This document shows, one piece after another, positions 2,941 through 23,529 of a DNA stretch of 24,000 bases; position 1 is the first letter of the stretch; each line of letters starts with the position of its first letter. Origin of the DNA: Geoglobus acetivorans (lineage in GTDB: Archaea; Halobacteriota; Archaeoglobi; Archaeoglobales; Archaeoglobaceae); NCBI RefSeq assembly GCF_039641995.1, contig NZ_CP087714.1, positions 1,654,328 to 1,678,327 of the forward strand, given 5' to 3'. Both the position numbers and the translations under genes were made by a program. Under the pieces are notes generated by a model, which did not search any database, was not told where the DNA came from, and worked only from the letters and a program-made list of their open reading frames with translations.

Positions 2941-3738
2941 ATGACGGTCATAACTTCGGACGTTCTGCCGGCCGAGCTTCTGCAGGCGATAAGCGATGTC
3001 GTTGTTGTGCAGGCAAGAGCGACGAGAGTTGGAAGGAACCTTGTGCAGACCGAGAAAGTCGACAGGGGAACGCAGGTCTACAAGTACAGGAAGTTCACGG
3101 GATTCAGCGATGTCCAGGAGATCCCCGAGGGTGCGGAGTTCCCGCTCGAGGGCGTGACATACACTGAAGCAACCGCATCGATCAAGAAGATCGGTAAGGG
3201 GTTCTTCATAACCAGGGAGGAGTACCTCGGAAACAAGATTCACAGCATCGGACAGCTTGCGAGAGATGCTGCAGAGGTCGTTGCCCTCAAGGAGGACGAA
3301 ATGATCATCAACGAGTTCGTGAACAACGCAGGCAAGACCCAGGCTGCGGCTGCAGCATGGAGTTCTACTGGTAACCCCTACGACGATGTTTCTGCCGCAC
3401 TTGCCAAGCTTGAAGAGGTCAACGTGAAGCCCGACATGCTCGTGCTGCACCCGTACGAGGTGGCGGACCTCAGAAAAATCGATGCCAACGCCAAAATGTC
3501 CTACGCTCAGCTCATCGAGGGTCTTGGGCTTAAGGTCATCGCAACTCCAAAGCTTTCGACCGGCACAGGTCTGCTCCTCGACAGCAAGAGAGCCGGGGTT
3601 CTTGTGATTGCCGAGGACATAACGATTGAGGGGCCAGAATACAGGCAGGAGAACCAGAGCTACCTCGTCAACGTCTTCGAGAGAATCGTTCCCGTGGTCA
3701 GGTATCCGGATGCAGTCTGCAAGCTGACGGGAATCTAA
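2941..3738 (+). CDS. major capsid protein, HK97 fold
   Basis: 265 aa in the canonical position after protease/scaffold and DUF2190. Sequence character is typical of small HK97-like MCPs (…ASIKKIGKGFFITREE…, …LVLHPYEVADLRK…). Confidence 0.8.
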   Translation: MTVITSDVLPAELLQAISDVVVVQARATRVGRNLVQTEKVDRGTQVYKYRKFTGFSDVQEIPEGAEFPLEGVTYTEATASIKKIGKGFFITREEYLGNKIHSIGQLARDAAEVVALKEDEMIINEFVNNAGKTQAAAAAWSSTGNPYDDVSAALAKLEEVNVKPDMLVLHPYEVADLRKIDANAKMSYAQLIEGLGLKVIATPKLSTGTGLLLDSKRAGVLVIAEDITIEGPEYRQENQSYLVNVFERIVPVVRYPDAVCKLTGI

Positions 3739-5251: not shown

Positions 5252-5254
5252 CAT

Positions 5255-5440
5255 CAGCATTAAACTGAGTCTTTTAGACAGCCTAAAACTCAGCTAAACT
5301 TGACCGTTTTGTGAACTACTCCGCCCTTACGGACGGAGCTTCCCGCTTCATCGAGAGAACTTGCCCCTCGATCACCTTCCGATATGGAATCACGAGGGAT
5401 AGAGACTCTCTCTCCACGGGCGTTCGGGACCGTCCCAGCC
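5255..5440 (-). ncRNA. candidate TnpB guide RNA (omega-RNA / reRNA) scaffold overlapping the tnpB 3' end
   Basis: On the - strand: GGGAC-G-GTCCC (5426-5436); ATCGAG…CTCGAT (5350-5372); an 8-bp stem with GUAA tetraloop and one U-G wobble, CTCCGTCC-GTAA-GGGCGGAG (5319-5338), spanning the last tnpB codons; and the extended hairpin CTGAGTTTTAG-GCTGT-CTAAAAGACTCAG (5265-5293). The exact ends and the guide are not determinable by eye. Confidence 0.35.
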
Positions 5441-6530
5441 CCACATCCAGTATGTTCAGGGAGGCGTTGTAATCTCTGTCAGCCTCCCATCCACAATTAG
5501 GACAGGCGAACGATCTATCTTTCAGGGATATGTTTTTAACAATGTAGCCACAGTTGGCACATCTTTTTGACGTATTTGTAGGATTAACTCTCACCACTCG
5601 CCTACCAGCTCTTTCAGCCTTGTAGACGAGCAGTGTATGGAATTTAGTCCATGCGGAATCGTGAATGTGCCTGTTCAGTGTTGGAGAGTTTCCATTTTCA
5701 ACCAAATCTTTCACATTCAGATCTTCAACGCAGATTATGTCATAGTTGTTGACATAATAACGAGACAACTTGTGCAAGAAATCCAGCCGCTGGTTGTTCA
5801 GCTTCTCGTAGAGTTTTGCCAGCTTGAGTCTGGCTTTCTCTCGCCTCTTCGACCCCTTCTGCTTTCTCGACAACTCTTTTTGAACCCTCTTTATCTTCTC
5901 AAGAGTTTTGTCAATGAATTTCGGATTCTCGAAAGCTATACCATCTGAATCTACGCAGAAGTGATTCACTCCCATGTCTAAACCAACTACTCTTCCCGTT
6001 TTTGGCAGTGATTTCGATTCTACTTCTGTTTGAACTATGGCGAACCACTTTTCGGTTTTAGTTTTCTTGACGATTACACCCTTGATTCTACCTTCAATCG
6101 GACGATGAAGCTTTATCGGAATTTCACCAATCTTGGATAGAACAAGCTTCTTTCTCTCAAAGTCAATCTTGAAACCTGACTGGTTGAAGTTTAGGGTTTT
6201 GAAAGAATTGGGAGAAGTCTTATAGCGAAGCCACCCAACTTTCTTCCCCTTCTTTCTCAGCTCGTTTAACGCTTTGATGTTTGACCAGAGCTGATAATTC
6301 ACCATCTGCAAAACTTTTGAGTAAACGTTCTTTAGCTCTGGTTTTTCTTGCTTAAGCCTCACGATAAGGGCTTGGGTATCTTTCCAACATATCTTTCTAC
6401 CCTCTTTTCTTGCCTTGTTTACTTCTTCAAGCAGCTTATTGTATAACCAGCGACATATCTCAAGCTGTTCATTTAGTTTTGCTTCAGATGTCTTCAAAGG
6501 ATAGATGCGGAATTTGTAGCTAATCAGCAT
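5316..6530 (-). CDS. tnpB: TnpB (IS200/IS605-family OrfB) RNA-guided RuvC nuclease, apparently intact
   Basis: 404 aa. N-terminus YKFRIYP, RuvC-I GLDMGV, RuvC-II ICVEDLNV, zinc finger CANCGY…CPNCGW, RuvC-III ADRDYNASLNI. No tnpA nearby. Confidence 0.9.
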   Translation of the reverse strand: MLISYKFRIYPLKTSEAKLNEQLEICRWLYNKLLEEVNKARKEGRKICWKDTQALIVRLKQEKPELKNVYSKVLQMVNYQLWSNIKALNELRKKGKKVGWLRYKTSPNSFKTLNFNQSGFKIDFERKKLVLSKIGEIPIKLHRPIEGRIKGVIVKKTKTEKWFAIVQTEVESKSLPKTGRVVGLDMGVNHFCVDSDGIAFENPKFIDKTLEKIKRVQKELSRKQKGSKRREKARLKLAKLYEKLNNQRLDFLHKLSRYYVNNYDIICVEDLNVKDLVENGNSPTLNRHIHDSAWTKFHTLLVYKAERAGRRVVRVNPTNTSKRCANCGYIVKNISLKDRSFACPNCGWEADRDYNASLNILDVGLGRSRTPVERESLSLVIPYRKVIEGQVLSMKREAPSVRAE

Positions 6531-6546
6531 CTTTTACACCAAAAAA

Positions 6547-6807
6547 TCATAAATTGTACTTTCTCTTGAACTTCTGAGCTCTCAGCGGAGCCATGTGTAT
6601 CATATCATCCAATCTGCCATAAATGTAGGACTCAACAGACTCAGTGATAACCTCTCCGATAAATCCATCTAATTTCTCCTCATCATAGCCTACCCACTTC
6701 CCATATTCTCTCAAGAACTCAACAAACCTCTTAGGCAGGGGTATTGACACCCTGACGAACTCCTCCCCCTCAATTATCACAGTCTGCTCCTCTTTCATCT
6801 CAATCAC
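6547..6807 (-). CDS. 86-aa cassette protein, possibly ribbon-helix-helix-like (copy 1)
   Basis: FVRVSIPLPKRFVEFLREYGKWVG looks like an RHH beta-strand plus helix. 85/86 aa are identical to 11674-11934. Its stop is 16 nt upstream of the tnpB ATG on the same strand, in an operon arrangement. Confidence 0.6.
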   Translation of the reverse strand: MIEMKEEQTVIIEGEEFVRVSIPLPKRFVEFLREYGKWVGYDEEKLDGFIGEVITESVESYIYGRLDDMIHMAPLRAQKFKRKYNL

Positions 6808-6818
6808 CTCCGAAAATT

Positions 6819-7013
6819 TTAGGAAAAAGCCTCGAGGACAGTTTGTCTTATTACAACCCTCTCCATTCCACCCTCAAAAACCAGCCAGCCCTTCTTAACC
6901 GGGAAGCTCTTAGAGAAGTCAAGTCGGGTCATTTTTGTTCCGCAAAGTGGACAAAGACCGCCGTTAACTCCCCAACCTTCATATCCGCATTTTGGACACA
7001 CCAACTCGGACAT
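6819..7013 (-). CDS. small Zn-ribbon protein (copy 1)
   Basis: CPKCG…x11…CPLCG zinc ribbon followed by a conserved C-terminal half (DFSKSFPVKKGWLVFEGGMERVVIRQTVLEAFS). I place the start at the ATG (complement of 7011-7013), which is preceded by GAGGTG; the track begins at a GTG at 7022. Confidence 0.6.
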   Translation of the reverse strand: MSELVCPKCGYEGWGVNGGLCPLCGTKMTRLDFSKSFPVKKGWLVFEGGMERVVIRQTVLEAFS

Positions 7014-7034
7014 TTTGGACACCTCTACTTTGTA

Positions 7035-7084
7035 GCTACATTGTAATTACATCAAAAGTTATTTAAACTTTTCGCTACATTGTA
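7035..7084. promoter_or_regulatory. divergent promoter of cassette 1 with two 11-nt direct repeats (putative operators) flanking a TATA box
   Basis: GCTACATTGTA at 7035-7045 and 7074-7084 (39 nt start to start) flank TTATTTAAAC (7059-7068). The palindromes GTAGCTAC and TGTAATTACA are also present. Confidence 0.5.
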
Positions 7085-7090
7085 GATACA

Positions 7091-7234
7091 ATGAAGCCCG
7101 CAAAAATAACTGTAGAAGGGTATGAAGTAATTGAGAAGGTCGTAAAAGATGCTGGGAATTCAGGTAGAGTCTATGTTCCAAAGTCTTGGGTTGGAAAGAG
7201 GGTTAAAATAATCTTGCTGGAGCCAAATGAATAA
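7091..7234 (+). CDS. DUF2080-like (AbrB/SpoVT-type) transposase-associated small protein (copy 1), 47 aa
   Basis: Below the ORF-track size cutoff; read directly from the sequence as MKPAKITVEGYEVIEKVVKDAGNSGRVYVPKSWVGKRVKIILLEPNE. The GNSGRVYVPKxWxGKxVK motif matches my memory of the archaeal DUF2080 family that accompanies tnpB. Confidence 0.6.
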   Translation: MKPAKITVEGYEVIEKVVKDAGNSGRVYVPKSWVGKRVKIILLEPNE

Positions 7235-7257
7235 AAGTGGAATCATCTGGAATTTTA

Positions 7258-7269
7258 TTTAATAAAGTC
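7258..7269 (+). promoter_or_regulatory. viral promoter motif variant TTTAATAAAGTC
   Basis: 18 nt to the ATG at 7288. Aligns with the motif at 12386-12396 at the right edge of the other cassette. Confidence 0.5.
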
Positions 7270-7287
7270 TGCTTCTGCCTTGCGATT

Positions 7288-7461
7288 ATGATTCGGTTGA
7301 ACGAGAATCAGCCACTCTGGATGCCTCCTGGGAGTGTCAGAGCGATAATTGCGCTTGCAATCGTCATTGGATACATTGCGATCAACAGAACCGTGGACAA
7401 GGAACTTGTCATGTTCGTACTCGGGTTCTACTTTGGCTCGAAGATGGGGGAGAGACGATGA
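7288..7461 (+). CDS. small 2-TM membrane protein (holin-like size)
   Basis: MIRLNENQ…AIIALAIVIGYIAI…LVMFVLGFYFG. The start is moved from the track's GTG at 7237 to the ATG at 7288 because the promoter motif lies in between. Confidence 0.55.
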   Translation: MIRLNENQPLWMPPGSVRAIIALAIVIGYIAINRTVDKELVMFVLGFYFGSKMGERR

Positions 7462-7679
7462 TGCTGGACGTTTTTGACGACAGGCTCAGCCTGATGCACA
7501 TCGTAGTAGGAGCGCTGAGTTTCTTCTACCAGGTGTTCTTCGTTGTCTTTGTGTTCTATGAGGTCGTTGAGCATATCTATCTCGCTGGAAGGGAGAAGGA
7601 AGCGAATTTCCTTGGGGATTTTGTCGAGTTTCTGTTTGGTCTCGGAGCGGCTGCCCTTGCGTGGGGGATGATGGCGTGA
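7458..7679 (+). CDS. small 2-TM membrane protein
   Basis: 73 aa with hydrophobic stretches IVVGALSFFYQVFFVVFVFY and FVEFLFGLGAAALAWGMM. ATGA overlap with the upstream gene. Confidence 0.55.
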   Translation: MMLDVFDDRLSLMHIVVGALSFFYQVFFVVFVFYEVVEHIYLAGREKEANFLGDFVEFLFGLGAAALAWGMMA

Positions 7680-9499: not shown

Positions 9500-9670
9500 A
9501 TGAAGGTCAGGCTGAAGAGGGGAGAGAAGCTCCACGTTGGGAGCTTCGTGTTCGAGGCGGGAGAGGTGTATGACGTCGAACCCACGACCGACATCTCCCG
9601 CCTGGTGAAGAGAGGAGTGTTGGAGGTCGTGAAAGATGAGATGAAGAGACAGAAGGAGGTGAGTGAATAA
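9500..9670 (+). CDS. small protein (56 aa), unannotated in the ORF track
   Basis: Read directly from the sequence: MKVRLKRGEKLHVGSFVFEAGEVYDVEPTTDISRLVKRGVLEVVKDEMKRQKEVSE. TAATG overlap with the next gene. Confidence 0.5.
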   Translation: MKVRLKRGEKLHVGSFVFEAGEVYDVEPTTDISRLVKRGVLEVVKDEMKRQKEVSE

Positions 9671-10596
9671 TGCCGATAGGGGCGACAGGCTATCTGCTCT
9701 GGAGAGATGAAAGCACATACGGAACAGATCCAGGAACTGGAAGCAAAACGGCAGATGCAGCAAGCGTGGAGCTGAACTGGAACAGAAACCTTGAGAGAGT
9801 CAAAGCTCTCTGGGGGGTCAGGAACGTTCCCAAGGTTTACAGTCAGGAGAAGCACGTTGAGGGAAGGATCGCACTCAACACAAGCGACTGGAAGATGCTT
9901 AAACATGTTCTCGGCAGTCTGACAGAGAACGTAACTTCAGCAACTCAGGCTCCATACTATCATGATTTTGAGGAAGCTGAGACGCTTCCGAGCTTCACGC
10001 TGGAGAGGCAGTGGGGATCAAACACAGCTTACGTTGCAGTCGGCTGTAAAGTAAACTCAGCGAGAATCAGAGGGGAAGTTGGAAAAGCTGTCGAATTTGA
10101 GCTTGAGATCCTCGGCAAGAGCATGTCGAAGATAACATCAGGACTTGCAATTCCAAGCTATTCTCCAACGCTACCATTCAGAATGACGAACCTCGCAACT
10201 GCAACCTTCGGAGGCTCAGATGTAAGCGGACAGATAAAGAGCTTTGAGATCAACATCAACAACAACCTTGAGCCAGATTATGGCAGTGATGGAACTCCGA
10301 GGGCGATTGACGAGGGACTGAGAGAAGTGACTGGAACCCTGACATTCAAATTCGACTATACAATAGCCGACTACGTGCTGAACGAGTCTGAGGGAGACAT
10401 AGTCATCAAGCTGATCAGGGGAACGAACGACGAGGTTGAGTTCACGATAGAGAATGCGACATTTGAGGCTCTGAATGATGTAACCGAGGCTGAAGCACAG
10501 AAAGAGCTTGAGCTTGCTTTCATGAGTCAGGCCGATCCAACGAACAAGAACTGCATCAAGGTGAGAGTTACATCTGCAAACGCCACGTACTACTGA
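9670..10596 (+). CDS. major tail (tube) protein
   Basis: 308 aa beta-rich protein between the tail-completion and chaperone/tape-measure genes. The segment …SFEININNNLEP…REVTGTLTF… resembles phage tail-tube families. No sheath gene is present. Confidence 0.6.
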   Translation: MPIGATGYLLWRDESTYGTDPGTGSKTADAASVELNWNRNLERVKALWGVRNVPKVYSQEKHVEGRIALNTSDWKMLKHVLGSLTENVTSATQAPYYHDFEEAETLPSFTLERQWGSNTAYVAVGCKVNSARIRGEVGKAVEFELEILGKSMSKITSGLAIPSYSPTLPFRMTNLATATFGGSDVSGQIKSFEININNNLEPDYGSDGTPRAIDEGLREVTGTLTFKFDYTIADYVLNESEGDIVIKLIRGTNDEVEFTIENATFEALNDVTEAEAQKELELAFMSQADPTNKNCIKVRVTSANATYY

Positions 10597-10605
10597 CAGA
10601 GATAA

Positions 10606-11658
10606 TTAATTTTTAGTGATGGGGTTTATTATTTGGATGAAACGTAATACTTCTTTTTTTCCACCAAGCACCGTTAATACATGCTCTGGTTTTCTATTTC
10701 TTCTCGTATAAGTCTTGATTGACACTTTAAAGCCTAATTTTTCCAGTTGAGCTTTAATAAGTTTTAGCAGCTTTAAGTTAGTATTGTACATTTGAATGTT
10801 AGAATGGGCACGATGCCCTTCAGATTCATAAAAGCCTCGAATGAATTCTTTGCGAAAATCATCGTTTATGAGGTACTCAGTTTCGATTGTCTTTAAGTCT
10901 AAACTCTTATACCACTCGTAAAATTGTTTTGACCGAGCCCTTACATAATAGATCTTCTTCCAATTAGGTTTTTTAGGCTTAATTGTCTTCATATATGGTT
11001 TAAGACCAATTCTTCTCAAATTAACTACAAATTCATCTGCAAATTGTTTATCAATCACTTTTAATTGGATAAACCTATCTCCGTACTTCTTCGTGTGTCC
11101 CACATAACCATCACCGAATATGACTCCTAAAATATATGCTAACTCTTTAGAAGGTTTAAGATTTACATCTGCAACTCCACCAAGCTCACGAAGGGGGATG
11201 TGATATTTTTTAAGGTATTGTCTAATTGTTGTAGCACTACACCTGAATATTTTGGCACAATCTCTAACTGACAACTCTAAGTCCCAGTAGGCAGTAAATA
11301 GCAGATCTTGGGAGATATTAACACTGGCACACTTCTTTGAACAGAATTTTCCTTCTCCCCGCTTAACCCTATATGGAAAAATGTAGAATTCTTTACCACA
11401 TCCTTGGCAGATTCTTTTGATCTTGACACTTGTTTTTCTATCATAGTCCAACCGACACTCGTGTGAACAGAATTTTGCTTTATCTCTCCTGCTTTGCCAG
11501 ACTTCAAACTCTTTACCACAGTTCTGACAGATTTTATTAACTCTCTTACGTCTAAATTCGTAAAAACATCGTTTTGAACAAAATCTTCTCTTCTCAATTT
11601 TAGATGGTGGCACTTGAAACTCCTTCCTACAATTCAAGCATTTGACAGTTACAGGCAT
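10606..11658 (-). CDS. LAGLIDADG homing endonuclease with three N-terminal FCS/TRASH-type zinc fingers and an HTH
   Basis: Three repeats of C-x2-C-x16-18-(F)C-S-x2-C (CLNCRKEF…FCSKRC, CQNCGKEF…FCSHEC, CQGCGKEF…FCSKKC). HTH LSVRDCAKIFRCSATTIRQYLKKY. Two LAGLIDADG motifs (LAYILGVIFGDGYVG and EFIRGFYESEGH). Strongly AT-rich. Confidence 0.8.
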   Translation of the reverse strand: MPVTVKCLNCRKEFQVPPSKIEKRRFCSKRCFYEFRRKRVNKICQNCGKEFEVWQSRRDKAKFCSHECRLDYDRKTSVKIKRICQGCGKEFYIFPYRVKRGEGKFCSKKCASVNISQDLLFTAYWDLELSVRDCAKIFRCSATTIRQYLKKYHIPLRELGGVADVNLKPSKELAYILGVIFGDGYVGHTKKYGDRFIQLKVIDKQFADEFVVNLRRIGLKPYMKTIKPKKPNWKKIYYVRARSKQFYEWYKSLDLKTIETEYLINDDFRKEFIRGFYESEGHRAHSNIQMYNTNLKLLKLIKAQLEKLGFKVSIKTYTRRNRKPEHVLTVLGGKKEVLRFIQIINPITKN

Positions 11659-11673
11659 TCTATCACCAAAAAA

Positions 11674-11934
11674 TCATAAATTGTACTTTCTCTTGAACTT
11701 CTGAGCTCTCAGCGGAGCCATGTGTATCATATCATCCAATCTGCCATAAATGTAGGACTCAACAGACTCAGTGATAACCTCTCCGATAAATCCATCTAAT
11801 TTCTCCTCATCATAGCCTACCCACTTCCCATATTCTCTCAAGAACTCAACAAACCTCTTAGGCAGGGGTATTGACACCCTGACGAACTCCTCCCCCTCAA
11901 TTATCACAGTCTGCTCCTCTTCCATCTCAATCAC
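11674..11934 (-). CDS. 86-aa cassette protein, RHH-like (copy 2)
   Basis: Differs from copy 1 by a single residue (K5E). Its stop is 15 nt upstream of the LAGLIDADG ATG. Confidence 0.6.
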   Translation of the reverse strand: MIEMEEEQTVIIEGEEFVRVSIPLPKRFVEFLREYGKWVGYDEEKLDGFIGEVITESVESYIYGRLDDMIHMAPLRAQKFKRKYNL

Positions 11935-11945
11935 CTCCGAAAATT

Positions 11946-12134
11946 TTAGGAAAAAGCTTCGAGGACAGTCTGCCTTATCACAACCCTCTCCATTCCACCC
12001 TCAAAAACCAGCCAGCCCTTCTTAACCGGGAAGCTCTTAGAGAAGTCCACTTTATGCAGTTCTCCACCACACAGCGGGCACAGACCATTGCTCCCAGAAC
12101 CTTCATACCCACATCGGACACATTTCACGGGCAT
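11946..12134 (-). CDS. small Zn-ribbon protein (copy 2)
   Basis: MPVKCVRCGYEGSGSNGLCPLCGGELHKV followed by a C-terminal half identical to copy 1. ATG (complement of 12132-12134) is preceded by GAGGTG. Confidence 0.6.
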   Translation of the reverse strand: MPVKCVRCGYEGSGSNGLCPLCGGELHKVDFSKSFPVKKGWLVFEGGMERVVIRQTVLEAFS

Positions 12135-12160
12135 TTTTAACACCTCTTAGTTAGATTTTA

Positions 12161-12210
12161 GCTATAATATATTTAGAACATAAACTATTTAAACTTTTCG
12201 CTATAATATA
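12161..12210. promoter_or_regulatory. divergent promoter of cassette 2 with two 11-nt direct repeats flanking a TATA box
   Basis: GCTATAATATA at 12161-12171 and 12200-12210 (39 nt start to start) flank CTATTTAAAC. Same geometry as copy 1 but a different repeat sequence. Confidence 0.5.
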
Positions 12211-12215
12211 GCTAT

Positions 12216-12362
12216 ATGGCAGATCCGATTGAGGTAAAAGTTAAGGGATATGAAGTAATCGAGAAGGTCGTAAAACGGAGTGGGGATTCAGGTAGAGTCT
12301 ATGTTCCAAAGTCTTGGGTTGGGAAGAAAGTTAAGATAATACTATTAGAGCCAAATGAGTAA
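12216..12362 (+). CDS. DUF2080-like (AbrB/SpoVT-type) small protein (copy 2), 48 aa
   Basis: Read directly from the sequence: MADPIEVKVKGYEVIEKVVKRSGDSGRVYVPKSWVGKKVKIILLEPNE. Confidence 0.6.
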   Translation: MADPIEVKVKGYEVIEKVVKRSGDSGRVYVPKSWVGKKVKIILLEPNE

Positions 12363-12385
12363 GGTAAATCATCTGAAGTTTTTGA

Positions 12386-12396
12386 TTTTTAAAGTC
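12386..12396 (+). promoter_or_regulatory. viral promoter motif TTTTTAAAGTC
   Basis: 19 nt to the ATG at 12416. Confidence 0.55.
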
Positions 12397-12415
12397 TATT
12401 TGAAATCAAGCAGAT

Positions 12416-12751
12416 ATGGTTGAGGAACTGAGCTTTGAGGATCTTAAGGGGCAACCTAAAGAGTTCATCATAAGGGGTAAACGAGTGAGAATTCCACCGT
12501 TAGAGGTTAGAGATTTCAATCTGTTTCTACGAATGTCCGAACAAGACCCGAACAAGGTTGCGGAAGTAATGAAAGAGATTTTCCTCAAAACAATGCAGAA
12601 GATCTATCCCGATAAGAGCAGAGAGGAAATTTTGAGCCTGCCAGCCAGTATCTTGCTTGAATTCATGGTTTACATTCTAAAAGCGAACGGCTTGGAGGTT
12701 GATGAAGAGGTTTTTCAGAAAGTTTTACAGAGCTTACAGAGCGAGACCTAG
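12416..12751 (+). CDS. tail assembly chaperone (G-like)
   Basis: 111 aa acidic protein immediately upstream of the tape measure gene, in the conserved position for the chaperone. Confidence 0.6.
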   Translation: MVEELSFEDLKGQPKEFIIRGKRVRIPPLEVRDFNLFLRMSEQDPNKVAEVMKEIFLKTMQKIYPDKSREEILSLPASILLEFMVYILKANGLEVDEEVFQKVLQSLQSET

Positions 12752-12786
12752 TGAAACTTATAGTAGTCTGCTTATCAGAGCTCAAA

Positions 12787-12930
12787 ATGGATCTTGAAAC
12801 AGTACTTTCAATGAAGATCCCACAGTTCTTGACATTGATGGCAGCATATAGTGAGGTACAAGAAGATATACAGAGAGAAGTTGAAAAAGAACGGAGGAAG
12901 AGAGAGTTCTTTAGCAGGATGGGGGTATAA
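12787..12930 (+). CDS. T-like chaperone extension: a separate 47-aa ORF or the -1 frameshift product of 12416-12751
   Basis: The -1 frame is open from 12706 to 12930 and overlaps the end of the G-like ORF. It ends in a TAATG overlap with the tape measure start. It contains an internal ATG at 12787. Confidence 0.4.
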   Translation: MDLETVLSMKIPQFLTLMAAYSEVQEDIQREVEKERRKREFFSRMGV

Positions 12931-15290
12931 TGGAGAAAATTGAGATTGTTATCCAAGCAATAGACAAAGCAACCAAACCGCTTAAAGAAATTCAAAACCG
13001 AATTGGTAGTTTAGGTCAAACTATTGGCTCAGCAGGTGCGGCATTTACAAGGGCAGGCATGATGATGTCTGCTGCGGTGCTCCCAATAGTTGGAGCATTC
13101 GGTTTGGCTATTAGAACAGGAGTTGAGTTTGAGCAACAAATGAAAAATGTCCAATCTGTTGCTCAAGCATCTCAAGAAGATTTCATCAAACTTTCAGAAT
13201 TTGCACGAAAAATGGGAGAACAAACAATTTTCTCGGCTTCGGAAGCAGCCCAAGCAATGTATTACCTTGCTTCAGCAGGTTATGATGCTTCCAGAATTAT
13301 GGAAAGCTTGGAAGGTATACTAGATCTTGCAGCAGCAACTCAAACAGATCTGGCTTTCGCAACTGAAACAGTTCTTTCAGTCTTAAATTCATTTGGCATG
13401 GAAGCTAAAGAAGCAACAAAAATCTCTGACAAGTTTGCTGCAACGATTTCAGGATCACAAGCAACCATGGAAAAATTGGCATATTCGATGAGATATGTTG
13501 CTCCTCTTTTTAAGAGCTTAGGATATACTATAGATGAATTACTCGTAGCTCTTGGAGGACTTTATAATGCAGGTTATAGAGGAGAGCAAGCTGGAACAAT
13601 CTTGAGAGGCGCTTTATCGAGGCTTATTGACCCTACTAAAGAAGTTTTAGAGACAATCAGTAGGTTGGGTTTGGAGATATATGAGCTTACTCCAGCAGCA
13701 TTGGAAATAAAAAGACAGTTCGACAAACAGAGTGAAGCTCTGAGAGAGCTTAGAGAAGAATATGAAAAGACAATAAACGCAATGTCTGAGATGAACGATG
13801 AAATGAGCAAACTTGCCGACAAGGAAGCAAGACTGAGACTTGAGATAAAGAAAATAAGATATAAAGCAGCCAAAGAGGGAAGAGAATTAACAGAAGATGA
13901 GAAAAAGCAGATTAAAGAGCTTGAACTTGCAATAGATGAGTTAAGCATCAGGCAAGATGAGTTGAGACTAAAATATAAAGAACTATCAAGAACTAAAGAG
14001 GAACAGATTGCCCAGATTAAATCTTTAGAATCTGCAGTCGAAGCTCTTGCTGAGAAATTTGCGAAGAGCCCTAAGAAACTCAAGCAATTCAAAATATTGA
14101 TGGAAGAATTCAGGAAAACATCAATGACAGCAGCAGATGCTGTAAAGATCTTTGGACAAGAAGCAGGACCAGGAATGATGGCTTTGATTAGCCAATATGG
14201 GACTGAGGCTCTTGATATGCTTGAAGAGAAAATCAAGAATGCAAGTGGTGCTGCTAAAGAAATGGCTGAAATTCAGCTAAAATCAACAGCTGGAGCTTTG
14301 AAGGAGCTAAAATCAAAAATAGAAGACATTCAAATTACAATTTTTGAAGAACTCAAAGACGAGATAGATGCACTCATCAATACGATTAAAGAAAATATGC
14401 CTGCTATTAAAGAATTTACTAAAGAATTTACAGAAAATATGGTGCCTGCTGCAAAAACATTCGGAGAAATACTCTTAGATTTAATGAAAACGTTCAACAA
14501 GTTACCGGCTCCAGTAAAAGAGTCAGTAGCTAGGTTTTCTGCTTTAGCTGTCGTTTTCATGGCTGTTGGCGGACCGATGTTGATGGTTTTAGGAGGAGCT
14601 ATGCAAGTAGTAGGAGCTATGATCTCAATTGGCTCAGCAATAAGTGGCTTGATTGGTGGGGGTGGAATACTAGCCACTCTTGTTGCTTTATTAGGGCCAG
14701 TGGGAGTTGCATTACTAGCTCTTGCGGCTGCAGCAGCTGTACTCTATGCTGCTTGGGTAAATAATTGGTTTGGAATCAGAGACAAGACTAAAGAACTGGT
14801 AGAAAAACTCTCTAAATCCATATCCGGCTTCTGGAAGTGGTTTGTGAATGCATGGAGTGGAGGATGGAAACGGATTAAAGAGGGCAGCATCAACACCTTA
14901 GCAACTCTTGGCAAAATATTCGGTAATGCACTAAGTTTGATCTATAATAATATCGTGGCAAAGTTTGTTGAAGGCTTCATCAATGCGATTAATACTGTTA
15001 TTGGTAGTGTTAACAAGTTTATAGCTTTTATGAGTACTGTCCCTTATATTGGCGAAAAACTCAAGGACGTATCAATCCCAACCCTTAAGATCCCAAACAT
15101 CAGGATAGACCTCGGACCGGCGATAGAGGCAAGGATTCTCGGACTCAAGGGGACCGAGATAAACAACAGCGTTACAGTGAATGTGAACGTTCAGACGGAT
15201 GCAGATCCGGATGTTATTGCTGATAGAGTCGGCAGAGTTGTTCTGAGAAAACTTGCAGATGCATACACTGTCAGGAGGGGGATGATTTGA
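12930..15290 (+). CDS. tail tape measure protein
   Basis: 786 aa. N-terminal TP901-type TMP core (…FEQQMKNVQSVAQAS…SASEAAQAMYYLASAGYDA…LDLAAATQTDL…), long coiled coils and a Gly-rich hydrophobic segment (GGPMLMVLGGAMQVVGAMISIGSAISGLIGGGGILATL…). At ~0.15 nm per residue the length implies a tail of roughly 115-120 nm. Confidence 0.85.
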   Translation: MEKIEIVIQAIDKATKPLKEIQNRIGSLGQTIGSAGAAFTRAGMMMSAAVLPIVGAFGLAIRTGVEFEQQMKNVQSVAQASQEDFIKLSEFARKMGEQTIFSASEAAQAMYYLASAGYDASRIMESLEGILDLAAATQTDLAFATETVLSVLNSFGMEAKEATKISDKFAATISGSQATMEKLAYSMRYVAPLFKSLGYTIDELLVALGGLYNAGYRGEQAGTILRGALSRLIDPTKEVLETISRLGLEIYELTPAALEIKRQFDKQSEALRELREEYEKTINAMSEMNDEMSKLADKEARLRLEIKKIRYKAAKEGRELTEDEKKQIKELELAIDELSIRQDELRLKYKELSRTKEEQIAQIKSLESAVEALAEKFAKSPKKLKQFKILMEEFRKTSMTAADAVKIFGQEAGPGMMALISQYGTEALDMLEEKIKNASGAAKEMAEIQLKSTAGALKELKSKIEDIQITIFEELKDEIDALINTIKENMPAIKEFTKEFTENMVPAAKTFGEILLDLMKTFNKLPAPVKESVARFSALAVVFMAVGGPMLMVLGGAMQVVGAMISIGSAISGLIGGGGILATLVALLGPVGVALLALAAAAAVLYAAWVNNWFGIRDKTKELVEKLSKSISGFWKWFVNAWSGGWKRIKEGSINTLATLGKIFGNALSLIYNNIVAKFVEGFINAINTVIGSVNKFIAFMSTVPYIGEKLKDVSIPTLKIPNIRIDLGPAIEARILGLKGTEINNSVTVNVNVQTDADPDVIADRVGRVVLRKLADAYTVRRGMI

Positions 15291-19443: not shown

Positions 19444-19569
19444 CCTAAAACCAGATGCCCTTCCGATTCAAAACACATTTTGACATTAAAATTTTTATGA
19501 ATCAATTACTCAGTAGAATTCATGACGATTACTTTCGGTTCATCAGCATATTCCCATTTAAGGAGGGTA

Positions 19570-20157
19570 ATGATTTTCATAGATGGAGGGTATTTTAAGA
19601 GAGTCGTTGACAGACACTTTGGCGATGGAAAAAGCAAGGATCCGGAGGTAATGTCCAGAACTTTGAACCATCTGATCTCAGATATATTGCGCAACAGTAG
19701 TTTTGCCCCAAACTCCAAGCCTGAGTTGATCAGGTCATACTATTATGACGCAAAGTTCTCTCCTGAGGATGATGAGTTCAAAGACCAGAACAATTATTTT
19801 GAAGAAATTCGAGGATATATAAATTATCCATTCGAAATGAAATTCGGAAGACTTATCAGGGCTGGAAAAGATAGGCGAGAGAAGAGACAGAAGGGTGTTG
19901 ATGTATTGTTATCTGTGGATATGGTCACCAAAGCGTTTCTCGATCATTATGATGTAGCGGTTCTGGTTGCAGGAGATCAGGATTTTCTCGATGCAATAAG
20001 GGTGGTTAAAGACTTCTCTGGAAAGAAAGTTGCTGGTTATTTCGTTCCAGCGAATAATGCACCTCCGAACACCTCTGAAGAGTTGATAAAGAGCCTTGAT
20101 TTCAAGTTCCCGAGACTTCCAACACCGCTTTTTGATGACTTGAAGCTTGAAGATTGA
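19570..20157 (+). CDS. NYN/LabA-like (PIN-fold) nuclease-domain protein
   Basis: Motifs VMIFIDGGY, KGVDVLLSVDM and AVLVAGDQDFLDAI match the NYN/LabA (DUF88) Asp signature. I prefer the ATG at 19570, which has AGGAGG 3 nt upstream, over the track start at 19522. Confidence 0.7.
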   Translation: MIFIDGGYFKRVVDRHFGDGKSKDPEVMSRTLNHLISDILRNSSFAPNSKPELIRSYYYDAKFSPEDDEFKDQNNYFEEIRGYINYPFEMKFGRLIRAGKDRREKRQKGVDVLLSVDMVTKAFLDHYDVAVLVAGDQDFLDAIRVVKDFSGKKVAGYFVPANNAPPNTSEELIKSLDFKFPRLPTPLFDDLKLED

Positions 20158-20176: not shown

Positions 20177-20968
20177 TTAACAGTCCAAAATCCTAAAATC
20201 TTTCCAATATTTGTCGTAAATTTTTTTCAGCTCTTCTTCGTCCTGGAAGTCGTAGTGTGATAAATCAACATCTCCAGCTGTTGAGTGTCCCATCAGAATC
20301 TTCTTCACTGCAGTTGGCATCCCCAGCCTGTCGCTCTGCTGGCTGAAGAACTTCCTCATGTGCTTCATTCTCAAACTCGTGTTTAATTTCCCGAAGTGGT
20401 ACAGTAGAGACTTCTTGGAGAAGAGAGGCTTGTCAGGTTTAACTACGGATAGATATTCCTGCAGAACTTCTTGGGCCTCTCTGGAGAAAAAAGTTACCCT
20501 GTCTTCATAGTCCTTGGCAAATTCTGCCCTGACATATATAGTTCTGTTTTCAGCATCAATATCCTTCCACATGAGATTGTACAGCTCCTCAGCCCTTATT
20601 CCGGACGTGGCAGATAAAAGCGTGGCAGACTTCACTTTCAAGGCATACCTCTCTCTAAGCTTACTGTCCGCCTCGGTGAGTATCTGTCTTATGTCTTTGG
20701 GCTTGATCACATGCTTTCTTCGCTTAGGTATCCTCGGAAGCTTGATATCGTCAGCTAAGGAGTGATTTATGAATTTCAGGAATTTCCTAATGCGGATAAG
20801 CTTGTTTCTGACACTCTTCGGGCTGTAACTGTTTTTTAATCTATTTATATAAATAATTATGTCATCATCGTTTAAATCGTAAGAACAGGCCTCTAAAAAG
20901 CTCAGAATATCGGATTTGTATGCTTTCAATTCCTGTGTGGAAATGTGCGACAGTTCCAGTCTCTTCAC
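20177..20968 (-). CDS. int: tyrosine recombinase (integrase); start uncertain, possibly the C-terminal part of a partitioned SSV-type integrase
   Basis: Catalytic-region motifs SGIRAEEL, KHMRKFF and LMGHSTAGDVDLSHY, with an N-terminal SAM-like core-binding region. There is no in-frame ATG between the tRNA and residue ~190; the nearest candidate start is the GTG at 20968. The ORF stays open through the whole tRNA gene up to 21115. Confidence 0.8.
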   Translation of the reverse strand: MKRLELSHISTQELKAYKSDILSFLEACSYDLNDDDIIIYINRLKNSYSPKSVRNKLIRIRKFLKFINHSLADDIKLPRIPKRRKHVIKPKDIRQILTEADSKLRERYALKVKSATLLSATSGIRAEELYNLMWKDIDAENRTIYVRAEFAKDYEDRVTFFSREAQEVLQEYLSVVKPDKPLFSKKSLLYHFGKLNTSLRMKHMRKFFSQQSDRLGMPTAVKKILMGHSTAGDVDLSHYDFQDEEELKKIYDKYWKDFRILDC

Positions 20969-21003
20969 AAACTCATCAAACGGCTCAAATAACGAAAAGC
21001 TAT

Positions 21004-21086
21004 GCGGGGGGCGGGATTTGAACCCGCGGACCCCTCCGGGACAGGGTCTTAAGCCCTGCGCCTTTTCCTGGCTCGGCAACCCCCGC
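21004..21086 (-). tRNA. tRNA-Leu (anticodon UAA), class II with long variable arm; no encoded CCA
   Basis: The reverse complement folds by hand. Acceptor GCGGGGG/CCCCCGC. D arm GCC…GGC. Anticodon stem CAGGG/CCCTG with loop CTTAAGA. Variable arm CCCGGAGGG. T arm GCGGG-TTCAAAT-CCCGC. Confidence 0.9.
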
Positions 21087-21297
21087 AGCGGAAATGGCGA
21101 CCAATTGCCGATCAATGGAGCTCCCGGCTGATTTGCAGTTTTCAGCTGTATTGGCTTGCGCGTGTGCGCTGAAGGTCAATAGCCTAGACCTGTGAAGTAC
21201 TTATGAAGTTTGTGGTAATGCTGAGACTGGACAGTGTTGTTAGTAGCCTTATCTGGCAGAATTGAGGGACAGATTTTTGGAAAAATAATATGAAGCA

Positions 21298-22095: not shown

Positions 22096-23529
22096 ATGAA
22101 TCCTGAGGATCTGGAAAGGGTGGCGGAGGAGTGGATTGAAAAGATTGCCCCCGGGATCCCATCAGATTTGCAGAACATGGTTGGGTTCATAGCGAGAAGT
22201 ATCGTTGAAGTGCTGTCCGGAAAGAGAACTGTGGATGACCTGGTAGGCGAGGTGGATGAGTCTCTTATCGAGGAATTGATAAGAAGGGGACAGGGTCCCG
22301 AGGACTTTCTGAAGAGAATTGAGCTTCTGGTTGAGATTGTTCGGAAGCATGACAGGGCACAGCAGCAGGAACTGCTTCCAGTAATATGTGAGCTCCAGAT
22401 GAAGGCCCTCGAAAAGGTTCTGAGAGTCTACAGCAGGATAACGGCCGGGGAGGTTCTGGCGAGAAAGAGGGCTGAAAGAGCATACAGAGTTCTCAATGCG
22501 GTAAATGAGGTTATCATAAAGGCAGAGGGAGAGAAAAAAATGCTCGAGGACGTCTGCAGGGTCATCGTGGAGGTTGGAGGGTACAAGCATGCGTGGATCG
22601 GGTATGCCGAGAACGGCAGGGTGATCAGGCTTGCTGCGAAGTACGGCTACAGCCGTGAAGAGCCTGAAAAGCAGCGAAACAGCCTGACAGGTTCGGAGGA
22701 CACAGAACCTTCTGCAGACTTGAGTGCGGATGATGACTGCAGTCCGTGTATAAAAATGGCCGAGAGGGAGGGCTTTGCATCATCGATCGCACTGCCTCTG
22801 AAGTATGACGGCGATATTTACGGCGTTCTGAACATTTACGCCCCTGAAAGCGATGTTTTTGACGATCAGGAGGTGGATCTGCTCACCAAACTGGCGGAGA
22901 ACATATCGTATGCGATCTCCAAGATAAGGACCGAGGCGGAGAAGAAGAAAATTGACCAGCTTTACAGGTTGCTCGTTGACAACACCGGGACTGCAATTCT
23001 GCTGATCGAGGATGGCAGAGTGGTGTTCGCAAACAGAAGGGCGGAGGAGCTTTCCGGTTACTCTAAGGAGCAGCTGATCGGAAAACCGTTCATCGAACTC
23101 GTCTGCGAAAAGGACAGGGAGAAGGTCATGAGAATGCACAGGATGAGGCTTGAAAATCCGGATTCGGTCCCTCAGAGCTACAGGCTGAACTACGTTGACT
23201 CGGCAGGAAACATGCGGAGCGGTGTTGCCATCGTCGCCAAAGTGCCGGAAAGCAGCAAGTTCATCGTGTCTGTTATTGACATTACCGACCTCATGCTTGC
23301 GATAGGGCAGATAGAGGAAAACATCGAGAAATTCGCAATACTCGTCGACAAGATCAGAAATCCTCTTGCGGCAATACACGGCTACGTTGAGGAGTACGTG
23401 GAGGATGAAACCTTGAGGGAGAAAATTTTCGAACAGATTGCCAGGATTGTCAAACTCGTGAATCAGCTTGAAGACGGCTGGATGGAATCAGAGAACGTCA
23501 GGATGTTTCTCAGAAAATTTGAGAGGTAA
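22096..23529 (+). CDS. GAF-PAS sensor protein with degenerate DHp/H-box and no HATPase domain
   Basis: GAF-like region (…HAWIGYAENG…ALPLKYDGDIYGVLNIYAPESDVFDDQEVDLL…). PAS-like region (LLVDNTGTAILLIEDGRVVFANRRAEELSGYSKEQLIGKPF…). H-box-like FAILVDKIRNPLAAIHGY, where Asp-Lys replace the canonical His-Glu. The ORF stops ~60 aa later. Confidence 0.7.
   Translation: MNPEDLERVAEEWIEKIAPGIPSDLQNMVGFIARSIVEVLSGKRTVDDLVGEVDESLIEELIRRGQGPEDFLKRIELLVEIVRKHDRAQQQELLPVICELQMKALEKVLRVYSRITAGEVLARKRAERAYRVLNAVNEVIIKAEGEKKMLEDVCRVIVEVGGYKHAWIGYAENGRVIRLAAKYGYSREEPEKQRNSLTGSEDTEPSADLSADDDCSPCIKMAEREGFASSIALPLKYDGDIYGVLNIYAPESDVFDDQEVDLLTKLAENISYAISKIRTEAEKKKIDQLYRLLVDNTGTAILLIEDGRVVFANRRAEELSGYSKEQLIGKPFIELVCEKDREKVMRMHRMRLENPDSVPQSYRLNYVDSAGNMRSGVAIVAKVPESSKFIVSVIDITDLMLAIGQIEENIEKFAILVDKIRNPLAAIHGYVEEYVEDETLREKIFEQIARIVKLVNQLEDGWMESENVRMFLRKFER

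Follow-up and report, generated by a model that had tools for sequence, protein, structure and literature searches.

The 24,000-nt stretch of DNA analyzed here (its full length is referred to as the window) covers the late, structural region of a head-tailed virus integrated in the genome of a Geoglobus-like archaeal host. Two paralogous accessory cassettes interrupt the late genes, each lying just upstream of a viral late promoter. They share one layout: a gene of the DUF2080 family, a bidirectional promoter with two palindromic sites, and a divergent operon, on the minus strand in both cassettes, in which a Zn-ribbon gene is followed by the gene for a protein of 83 amino acids (aa) and then by a nuclease gene, the nuclease slot being occupied by TnpB in cassette 1 and by a LAGLIDADG protein in cassette 2. 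Comparison of the two cassettes with each other and with copies from other elements revealed a fine mosaic, and the features on which this comparison draws are as follows.

5291-5315, minus strand: right end of the TnpB element, with the terminus TTCAC at 5311-5315 and then the presumed 20-nt guide position at 5291-5310.
5316-6530, minus strand: TnpB gene (404 aa), third gene of the cassette-1 operon, matched by NCBIfam and Pfam profiles.
6531-6546, minus strand: junction of the 83-aa gene and the third gene in cassette 1, where the sequence common to both cassettes stops at a GGTG ribosome-binding motif (6537).
6547-6798, minus strand: 83-aa gene, copy 1, with the apparently homogenized tract 6537-6794, equivalent to 11664-11921.
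6819-7013, minus strand: Zn-ribbon gene, copy 1 (195 nt).
6819-6920, minus strand: C-terminal half of Zn-ribbon copy 1, codons 32-64 (DFSKSFPVKKGWLVFEGGMERVVIRQTVLEAFS), conserved in every copy found.
6921-7013, minus strand: N-terminal CxxC...CxxC half of Zn-ribbon copy 1, type A, a type found in this window only.
7014-7090: divergent promoter/operator of cassette 1, core CTACA-T-TGTAG.
7091-7234, plus strand: DUF2080 gene of class A (MKPAKITVE...AGNSGR), matched by PF09853 and NF033496.
7259-7290, plus strand: late promoter on the cassette-1 side (the variant TTTAATAAAGTC), with the ATG of the next viral gene at 7288.
10606-11658, minus strand: gene for a 350-aa protein like LAGLIDADG homing endonucleases, in third place in the cassette-2 operon; the protein bears a helix-turn-helix and, at its N-terminus, three Zn-finger repeats.
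11674-11925, minus strand: 83-aa gene, copy 2, the same as copy 1 except for E2.
11946-12134, minus strand: Zn-ribbon gene, copy 2 (189 nt), whose N-terminal half, type B, is 12048-12134.
12135-12215: divergent promoter/operator of cassette 2, core CTATA-A-TATAG.
12216-12362, plus strand: DUF2080 gene of class B (MADPIEVKVK...SGDSGR), matched by PF09853 (E=3.5e-8) and NF033496 (E=4e-19).
12388-12418, plus strand: late promoter on the cassette-2 side (TTTAAAGTC), before the ATG of a tail-chaperone-like gene.

The copies were compared by global alignment of 6400-7500 with 11530-12630 and with a repeat finder. An earlier note on this DNA had counted about five C/T differences in 384 nt, and the alignment of 6537-6920 with 11664-12047 gave exactly five, at 6795, 6831, 6843, 6846, and 6852, all of them C/T on the plus strand. 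The first changes Lys to Glu at codon 2 of the 83-aa open reading frame (ORF), which is the K5E of the note if the GTG within the ribosome-binding site is taken as the start of an 86-aa protein, and the remaining four, all in 6831-6852, are synonymous in Zn-ribbon codons 32-64 (chance of four out of four transitions being synonymous, 0.0096). The five differences are clustered (P=0.002 for a span of 57 nt or less within 384). Past 6920, the Zn-ribbon gene's N-terminal half is only 59% identical (35/87 differences) and carries, as had been reported, a length gap of 6 nt, which is in frame (195 versus 189 nt); the intergenic regions are 75% identical, and the DUF2080 genes are 41% identical in the first 10 codons and 84% in codons 11-48. 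The identical core described for the DUF2080 gene was present, but its length is 37 nt (7158-7194) and not 36 nt, this being the longest identical run in that gene. As a candidate nucleotide-level element the core was rejected, being not clearly above chance and having synonymous changes in L075. Reading frames are intact in both copies, and neither frame-disrupting differences nor the uniform divergence that the note had named as counter-evidence was seen (differing columns, 41/102 versus 5/398; Fisher p=1.5e-26).

Between copy 1 and copy 2, the synonymous divergence (dS) of the 83-aa gene was 0 (0/49 synonymous sites) and its nonsynonymous divergence (dN) 0.005, as compared with a dS of 0.21 and a dN of 0 in the Zn-ribbon C-terminal half, saturated synonymous sites (proportion differing, pS, 0.79) and a dN of 0.38 in the Zn-ribbon N-terminal half, and a dS of 0.67 and a dN of 0.078 in the DUF2080 core; the proportions of differing synonymous sites, 0/49 in the 83-aa gene versus 4/22, were significantly different (Fisher p=0.0075). 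The closest relative of the virus is the provirus of Geoglobus acetivorans SBH6, whose head proteins are 90-96% identical in amino-acid sequence, and the foreign DNA copies consisted of that of G. acetivorans (L005) and those of the metagenome contigs L002 and L003. Against these, the 384-nt block was divided into three zones.

Zone i, 6537-6794: 0/258 differences between the window copies, 41-57/258 (16-22%) against foreign copies.
Zone ii, 6795-6852: 5/58 between the window copies, 4-9/58 against L002 and G. acetivorans.
Zone iii, 6853-6920: 0/68 between the window copies, 1-4/68 against L002 and G. acetivorans.

Since the foreign copies show that these zones behave differently, the 384-nt block is composite: in zone ii the window copies are no nearer to each other than to foreign ones, and zone iii hardly varies in any copy found. 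The Zn-ribbon C-terminal half has diverged by 1-10% across genomes. The 83-aa gene, on the other hand, has a dS of 0.73 to L002, 1.19 to G. acetivorans, and 2.2 to L003, and its identity between the window copies is therefore not a matter of nucleotide-level constraint. As in a conversion tract, dS is 0 inside, at least 0.21 in the flank, and 0.7-2.2 between genomes. Homogenization within this genome thus appears limited to the 83-aa ORF, in a tract that starts at codon 3 and extends to the following gene's ribosome-binding site. The recent conversion over one half of the module that had been proposed is hence borne out insofar as recombination explains the identity, but the homogenized tract comprises the 83-aa ORF only. 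Outgroup comparisons gave a dN/dS ratio (omega) of 0.05-0.11 for the 83-aa gene and 0.07-0.33 for the Zn-ribbon gene, and a dN of 0.057 with saturated dS for DUF2080. All three small genes were thereby shown to be under purifying selection, and the earlier view that they are real genes stands on outgroup omega, a firmer basis than five sites or the synonymous-only changes.

The mosaic structure, with a breakpoint inside the Zn-ribbon gene, was confirmed by a maximum chi-square test, which placed the breakpoint at codons 31-34, corresponding to alignment columns 101-104 from the ATG (chi-square 80, p=0.0002); it coincides with the domain boundary of the protein. In the triplet of copy 2, copy 1, and L002, 35 consecutive informative sites join copy 2 with L002, and nearly all later ones join the two window copies. 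The type B N-terminal half of copy 2 is the same as that of L002 at 87/87 nt, while L002 is 10-16% different from the window elsewhere, and the same as that of G. acetivorans at 81/87 nt; unchanged or nearly so, this half stands beside three unrelated upstream regions. The 83-aa gene is itself divided, its 5' half being nearest to G. acetivorans (95%) and its 3' half to L002 (83% versus 66%). Short sequences conserved in all copies lie at the breakpoints, namely AGAGGTGTnnAAAATG where the Zn-ribbon gene starts, GACTTCTC where the domains join, and TGAT...GGTG behind the stop codon of the 83-aa gene. At the last of these, TTTTTTGGTG is continued by TAAAAGATG in copy 1 and by ATAGAATG in copy 2, and the third gene begins a few nucleotides after GGTG in both window copies, G. 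acetivorans, and L003, for which the DNA was aligned. Outside the window, this slot holds a distant TnpB-like gene in L073 and L074, a LAGLIDADG gene in L003 and L004 and, weakly, in L088, and a winged-helix gene in G. acetivorans and L002.

The intergenic region of each cassette contains a near-palindromic element in which a TATA box lies between two B recognition elements (BRE-TATA-BRE; AAAAGTTATTTAAACTTTT in copy 1), with the TATA at 7060-7067 in cassette 1 and at 12187-12194 in cassette 2. Promoters were assigned by reading the sequence on established archaeal promoter geometry. The TATA center is about 26-27 nt from the DUF2080 ATG, a distance implying a leaderless DUF2080 mRNA; on the other side, about 27 nt separate it from a position that precedes the Zn-ribbon ATG by 24 nt. 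The element is flanked by the 11-nt palindromes, whose pairs are spaced 39-40 nt and span both presumed start points: CTACA-T-TGTAG at 7034-7044 and 7074-7084, plus a degenerate one at 7024-7035, in cassette 1, and CTATA-A-TATAG at 12161-12171 and 12200-12210 in cassette 2. The two site types differ by one symmetric base pair. Matches to the two motifs numbered 8 against 1.2 expected by chance for the former and 5 against 0.85 for the latter, as judged from shuffled sequence.

With the window cassettes designated W1 and W2, the palindrome type tracks the DUF2080 type in 7/7 loci, class A (KITVE...AGNSGR) comprising W1, L073, and L075, and class B (E-I/V-K...SGDSGR) comprising W2, L078, L079, and L081; a hand count from the sequences found the class-specific base in 27/28 half-sites, and further DUF2080 loci in viral contigs, being too diverged, were left out of this test. 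The first gene of the divergent operon is independent of class: it may encode a Zn-ribbon of type A or type B, a 40-42-aa protein (in both classes), or a 53-aa or 108-aa protein. What the earlier note had taken for a distinct DNA-recognition half is accordingly not one unit, as the palindromes follow the DUF2080 type and not the Zn-ribbon N-terminus. The latter is apparently not the reader of the palindromic sites, and we infer that DUF2080 is a site-specific, probably dimeric autoregulator of both promoters.

The two DUF2080 proteins score 38.5 and 33.5 bits with PF09853 (cut-off 21.5; class A, E=1e-9) and 69 and 67.8 bits with NF033496 (cut-off 22; class A, E=2e-19), and a weak hit to the Pfam MazE_antitoxin profile was found (E=0.042). 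A role of DUF2080 as a type II antitoxin was considered and rejected for the window, where each DUF2080 gene is followed by the viral late promoter and structural genes, with no toxin gene. Elsewhere, at L079 3001-3549, a Fic-domain gene comes 30 nt after a DUF2080 gene of class B, which itself is divergent from an integrase operon, and the family may be antitoxin-like in some such contexts. DUF2080 genes in other elements are divergent from operons ending in a TnpB-like gene, an integrase (L079), or a DDE transposase (L083), in agreement with the database name "transposase-associated".

The sequence TTTAAAGTC occurs on the plus strand at 1177, 4003, and 12388, 28 nt before the ATGs at 1205, 4031, and 12416, and is probably the viral late promoter for leaderless transcripts. 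The note had remarked that similarity returns at the promoter downstream of the module; the two copies are indeed similar there, but what they have in common is this generic late-promoter motif, which is also present at the cassette-free site of a related virus. The late promoter of the cassette-1 site is kept both at the site in L009, a more distant relative that is empty at the cassette-1 position, and in a deletion scar of the G. acetivorans provirus, and the motif may serve as a right-hand crossover point. The scar (L007 12379-12473) equals window 5316-5390 plus 7210-7236: the G. acetivorans provirus lacks window 5391-7209, shows AATC microhomology at the junction, and still has 24 codons from the end of tnpB, the element's right end, and the final 8 codons of DUF2080, with one of these turned into a stop. 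The two viruses therefore separated after cassette 1 was in place, and that lineage later lost it. At the same position, L008 7055-8317 carries a metallophosphatase-like gene and a 141-aa gene, and the cassette-1 site appears to be a hotspot for accessory genes. The G. acetivorans provirus does possess an intact Zn-ribbon/83-aa/winged-helix operon, located upstream of its terminase genes. In its tail region (L096 2064-2617), an N-terminally truncated, promoterless DUF2080 gene abuts an opposite-strand 135-aa gene and is followed by the TTTAAAGTC promoter, and this locus looks like a decayed third cassette.

Both nucleases in the window are full length. TnpB matched the NCBIfam model guided_TnpB (NF040570; E=1e-92) over positions 1-387 of 389, as well as the Pfam families PF01385 (OrfB_IS605), PF07282 (Cas12f1-like_TNB), and PF12323 (HTH_OrfB_IS605). 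In a comparison with about 10 close archaeal relatives, all loci end in TTCAC, mostly ...TAG TTCAC, and diverge straight after it, and DNA homology sets in some 10 nt ahead of the ATG, a place taken by tnpA in most relatives; the window tnpB was found to have neither tnpA nor a recognizable left end, the position being held by the 83-aa gene, which is common to the tnpB-free copy 2. The idea that the cassette is an IS200/IS605 element with passenger genes was rejected, as homology to other TnpB elements is limited to the tnpB ORF and the right end. Judged from these comparisons, the window tnpB is a captured nuclease gene and not a complete insertion sequence. Its hairpin-rich 3' end (5252-5480, minus strand), with the unique 20-mer AAAACGGTCAAGTTTAGCTG, is at the usual position of a TnpB guide RNA and is a candidate for one; the guide-like 20-mer occurs once in the window, the region folds weakly better than shuffles (z=-1.7), and an Rfam scan of the window found no guide-RNA family, only tRNA. 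TnpB proteins with 75-87% identity occur in bins (L010-L072) of Alkanophaga, Baldrarchaeota, Hydrothermarchaeota, and Archaeoglobales, which suggests recent horizontal spread of TnpB among thermophiles.

The LAGLIDADG protein is a predicted homing endonuclease, with Pfam LAGLIDADG_3 (PF14528; E=3e-17) matching in two stretches, the motifs ILGVIFGDGY and FIRGFYESEGH readable in its sequence, and a match to the PADLOC HEase model. Its N-terminus carries finger repeats rich in Cys, three in tandem and each about 40 aa long (11329-11591, minus strand), marked by the 26-nt repeat family D3 and resembling DNA-binding modules annotated in phage "HNH endonuclease" families.

The best reading of these results, and in our judgment a probable one, is conversion of the 83-aa gene combined with the exchange of switch units at conserved linkers. 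A recent non-reciprocal exchange between the two copies would have removed all differences between the 83-aa ORFs from codon 3 onward as far as the third gene's ribosome-binding site, whereas the Zn-ribbon C-terminal halves would be alike through conservation in every known copy. The Zn-ribbon N-terminal half and, separately, the unit of DUF2080 with its operator would be discrete allelic types swapped between elements, with crossovers in short conserved linkers, namely the AGAGGTGTnnAAAATG start region, the GACTTCTC junction, GGTG, and the late-promoter motif. DUF2080 dimers on both palindromes would cover both start points and so repress DUF2080 and the nuclease operon, and the different specificities of protein and operator would let the two cassettes be controlled independently despite the same 83-aa protein. 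The comparisons above show the layout of the cassettes, their uneven divergence, the breakpoints, the purifying selection, the covariation of operator with DUF2080 type, and the ancestral presence of cassette 1; what we infer from them is the conversion between the two window copies with its direction and trigger, the exchange of allelic units at linkers, the binding and repression by DUF2080, and the roles of the Zn-ribbon and 83-aa proteins.

Several points weigh against this reading. There are only four or five homologous DNA copies, so that the donor and the direction of conversion are not fixed, and a third copy from beyond the window, of the kind that G. acetivorans has upstream of its terminase genes, could have been the donor. 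The patch of five differences between identical stretches needs an extra event in any scenario. The covariation of operators with DUF2080 classes consists of two clades of adjacent sequence, and linkage alone could yield it. The promoter call was made from consensus geometry only. In a search for similarity to the swapped-hairpin DNA-binding fold of AbrB, MazE, and SpoVT proteins, an AlphaFold monomer of DUF2080 (pLDDT 72) gave no significant match in the PDB, a monomer being unable to show a fold that exists only in the dimer, and neither profile comparison (hhalign) with the MazE-like neighbor of the G. acetivorans copy nor PDB profile searches gave anything for DUF2080.

A different history, which we consider possible although unlikely, is a recent duplication of the whole cassette, the flanks of which were then replaced by outside elements, so that the identical 83-aa gene is an untouched residue. 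The 0/87 differences between the Zn-ribbon N-terminal half of copy 2 and L002 do indicate very recent exchange with the outside, and class A and class B switch units as well as differing third genes circulate in other elements. However, at least three replacements would be needed (of the third gene, of the 58-nt patch at 6795-6852, and of the Zn-ribbon N-terminus with the switch), each with its limit exactly at the border of one small ORF; a dS of 0.67 separates the DUF2080 cores; and cassette 1 is old, as seen from the scar in the sister provirus. Even so, the outcome of such a history is formally hard to separate from that of conversion.

Less probable still is that conversion was set off by the nucleases of the cassettes, the paralogue serving as template for the repair of a break made by LAGLIDADG or TnpB close to where the 83-aa gene meets the nuclease gene. 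Co-conversion tracts are known from phage homing endonucleases. The 0/258 tract starts exactly at the nuclease junction (6537/11664) and ends about 260 nt away, a LAGLIDADG or TnpB-type gene follows the 83-aa family gene in four to five of seven readable contexts, and neither window nuclease is truncated, all of which would suit such a trigger. On the other side, there is no known cleavage site, the guide-like 20-mer of TnpB matches its own flank only, each slot has a nuclease gene of its own that conversion did not carry into the other, and ordinary homologous recombination between the 384-nt repeats suffices.

An assembly artefact, in which one repeat copy was partly overwritten by reads of the other, is highly improbable: short repeats can collapse in short-read assemblies, but the five differences, the distinct flanks on both sides, the intact frames, the 1.9-Mb source contig, and the same architecture in independent assemblies all speak against it. 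Least credible of all is an explanation without recombination, by strong purifying selection or by nucleotide-level constraint such as an embedded binding site or RNA, since the strong conservation of the 83-aa protein, with 55/83 columns invariant in an alignment of five sequences, is set against a dS of 0.73-2.2 between genomes and 0/49 synonymous sites between the window copies, which contradicts it. Conversion of the 83-aa gene with exchange of the switch units thus remains the favored reading, and the viral mosaic is real, finely structured, and mechanistically ordinary, while the module itself is little known.

The 83-aa and Zn-ribbon proteins are rare. Only 10 representative proteins among 1.8 billion matched the 83-aa family, and a scan of a genome collection with the single 83-aa protein yielded zero relatives; among 5.8 billion, the search for the Zn-ribbon family gave only three, one from the window itself, one from G. 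acetivorans, and a relative of 68 aa. The 83-aa protein had no match among Pfam, NCBIfam, PHROG, or PDB profiles, and a fold search with its AlphaFold model (pLDDT 73) gave no match with E<0.7; a role as a ribbon-helix-helix regulator was dismissed, there being no profile or fold match to such proteins. A partnership of the Zn-ribbon and 83-aa proteins was also considered, on the ground of the 111-aa fusion protein P0009, and this argument was weakened by the finding that a close relative of P0009 in L093 adjoins a separate Zn-ribbon gene of the window type. Among the cassette proteins, the PADLOC defense models matched the two nucleases only and none of the small ones. BLAST of the cassette against phage records gave zero matches, and in the literature on DUF2080, and on TnpB or proviruses in Archaeoglobales, no account of this module was found. 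The G+C contents of both cassettes (5500-7100 and 10700-12300) are 0.33-0.44, below the 0.48-0.53 of the head genes, which fits a foreign origin.

The surrounding viral genes, and the cellular gene beyond them, are as follows.

1205-2563: prohead protease/scaffold gene, then a cement protein gene.
2941-3738: HK97-type capsid protein gene; an HK97-gp10-like protein gene is also in the structural set.
9670-10596: tail tube gene.
12930-15290: tape measure gene; baseplate-like genes are also present.
20177-21115, minus strand: tyrosine integrase gene, adjoining and, in the ORF call, overlapping tRNA-Leu.
21002-21087, minus strand: tRNA-Leu, anticodon TAA.
22096-23529: cellular GAF-PAS sensor kinase gene, beyond the integrase and tRNA-Leu.

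The integrase and tRNA-Leu probably mark the provirus end and attachment site. Just inside this end, the NYN-domain protein at 19522-20157 (plus strand) also matches the PADLOC candidate defense family HEC-09 (E=2e-12). Two abutting short ORFs on the plus strand, 12416-12751 and 12751-12930, immediately precede the tape measure gene, the usual place for tail assembly chaperones with a programmed frameshift. A scan of a viral collection with the tail tube protein found zero relatives.

Among known systems, the pattern works much like phage mosaicism and immunity-region exchange with paralogue conversion added, yet it is not a member of those systems. Like the mosaics of tailed phages and the lambdoid immunity regions, it switches abruptly from near-identical to unrelated sequence at the borders of genes or domains, its regulator gene and repeated palindromes behave as one exchangeable unit with alternative specificities, and its crossovers would fall at short conserved boundaries. 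In contrast to these regions, the host here is an archaeon with a TATA/BRE promoter, the presumed regulator is a 47-aa DUF2080 protein instead of a helix-turn-helix repressor, the unit would govern not lysogeny but an accessory nuclease operon in the late region, and two specificities are present in one genome. The zero-dS island between older flanks and the phylogenetic signal that switches along the alignment are those of gene conversion between paralogues, although the tract, at about 260 nt, matches one ORF and is known from one genome.

The nuclease genes have counterparts as well. With IS200/IS605 elements, cassette 1 shares a full-length TnpB, the ...TAG TTCAC terminus, and a hairpin-rich 3' region at the usual guide RNA position, whereas it has no tnpA and no left end, its gene being spliced into a foreign operon at the ribosome-binding site. 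As with the free-standing homing endonucleases of phages (T4 seg and mob), nuclease genes lie between conserved genes, depend on the promoter of a neighbor, are variably present in close relatives, and are accompanied by local mosaicism; unlike in that case, two unrelated nuclease types occupy the same slot. In the "transposase-associated" DUF2080 family, to which the window proteins belong with scores well above the thresholds, the gene is likewise divergent from TnpB-like, DDE transposase, or integrase operons at other loci, and its covariation with the operator, as observed here, gives a new lead on function rather than established knowledge.

The mosaic constitutes a natural experiment, in which DUF2080 with its sites, the Zn-ribbon N-terminus, the 83-aa gene, and the nuclease slot behave as separate units. 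It provides a testable role, that of a sequence-specific autoregulator with two specificities, for DUF2080, so far only named "transposase-associated", and shows that TnpB and homing-endonuclease genes can enter the same regulated operon slot of an archaeal virus. The cassettes thereby offer a direct route to study how selfish nucleases are restrained in archaeal mobile elements. We put forward, tentatively and with considerable doubt, the broader proposal that DUF2080 with its operator, the Zn-ribbon protein, and the 83-aa protein form a portable and not yet described control module for selfish DNA enzymes (TnpB, LAGLIDADG, transposases, and integrases) in archaeal viruses. If this were true, swappable operator specificities would act like immunity types and two nuclease cassettes would coexist in one genome without cross-regulation, and the rare pair of Zn-ribbon and 83-aa proteins, far from being passive neighbors, would serve the nuclease as its dedicated cofactor or governor.

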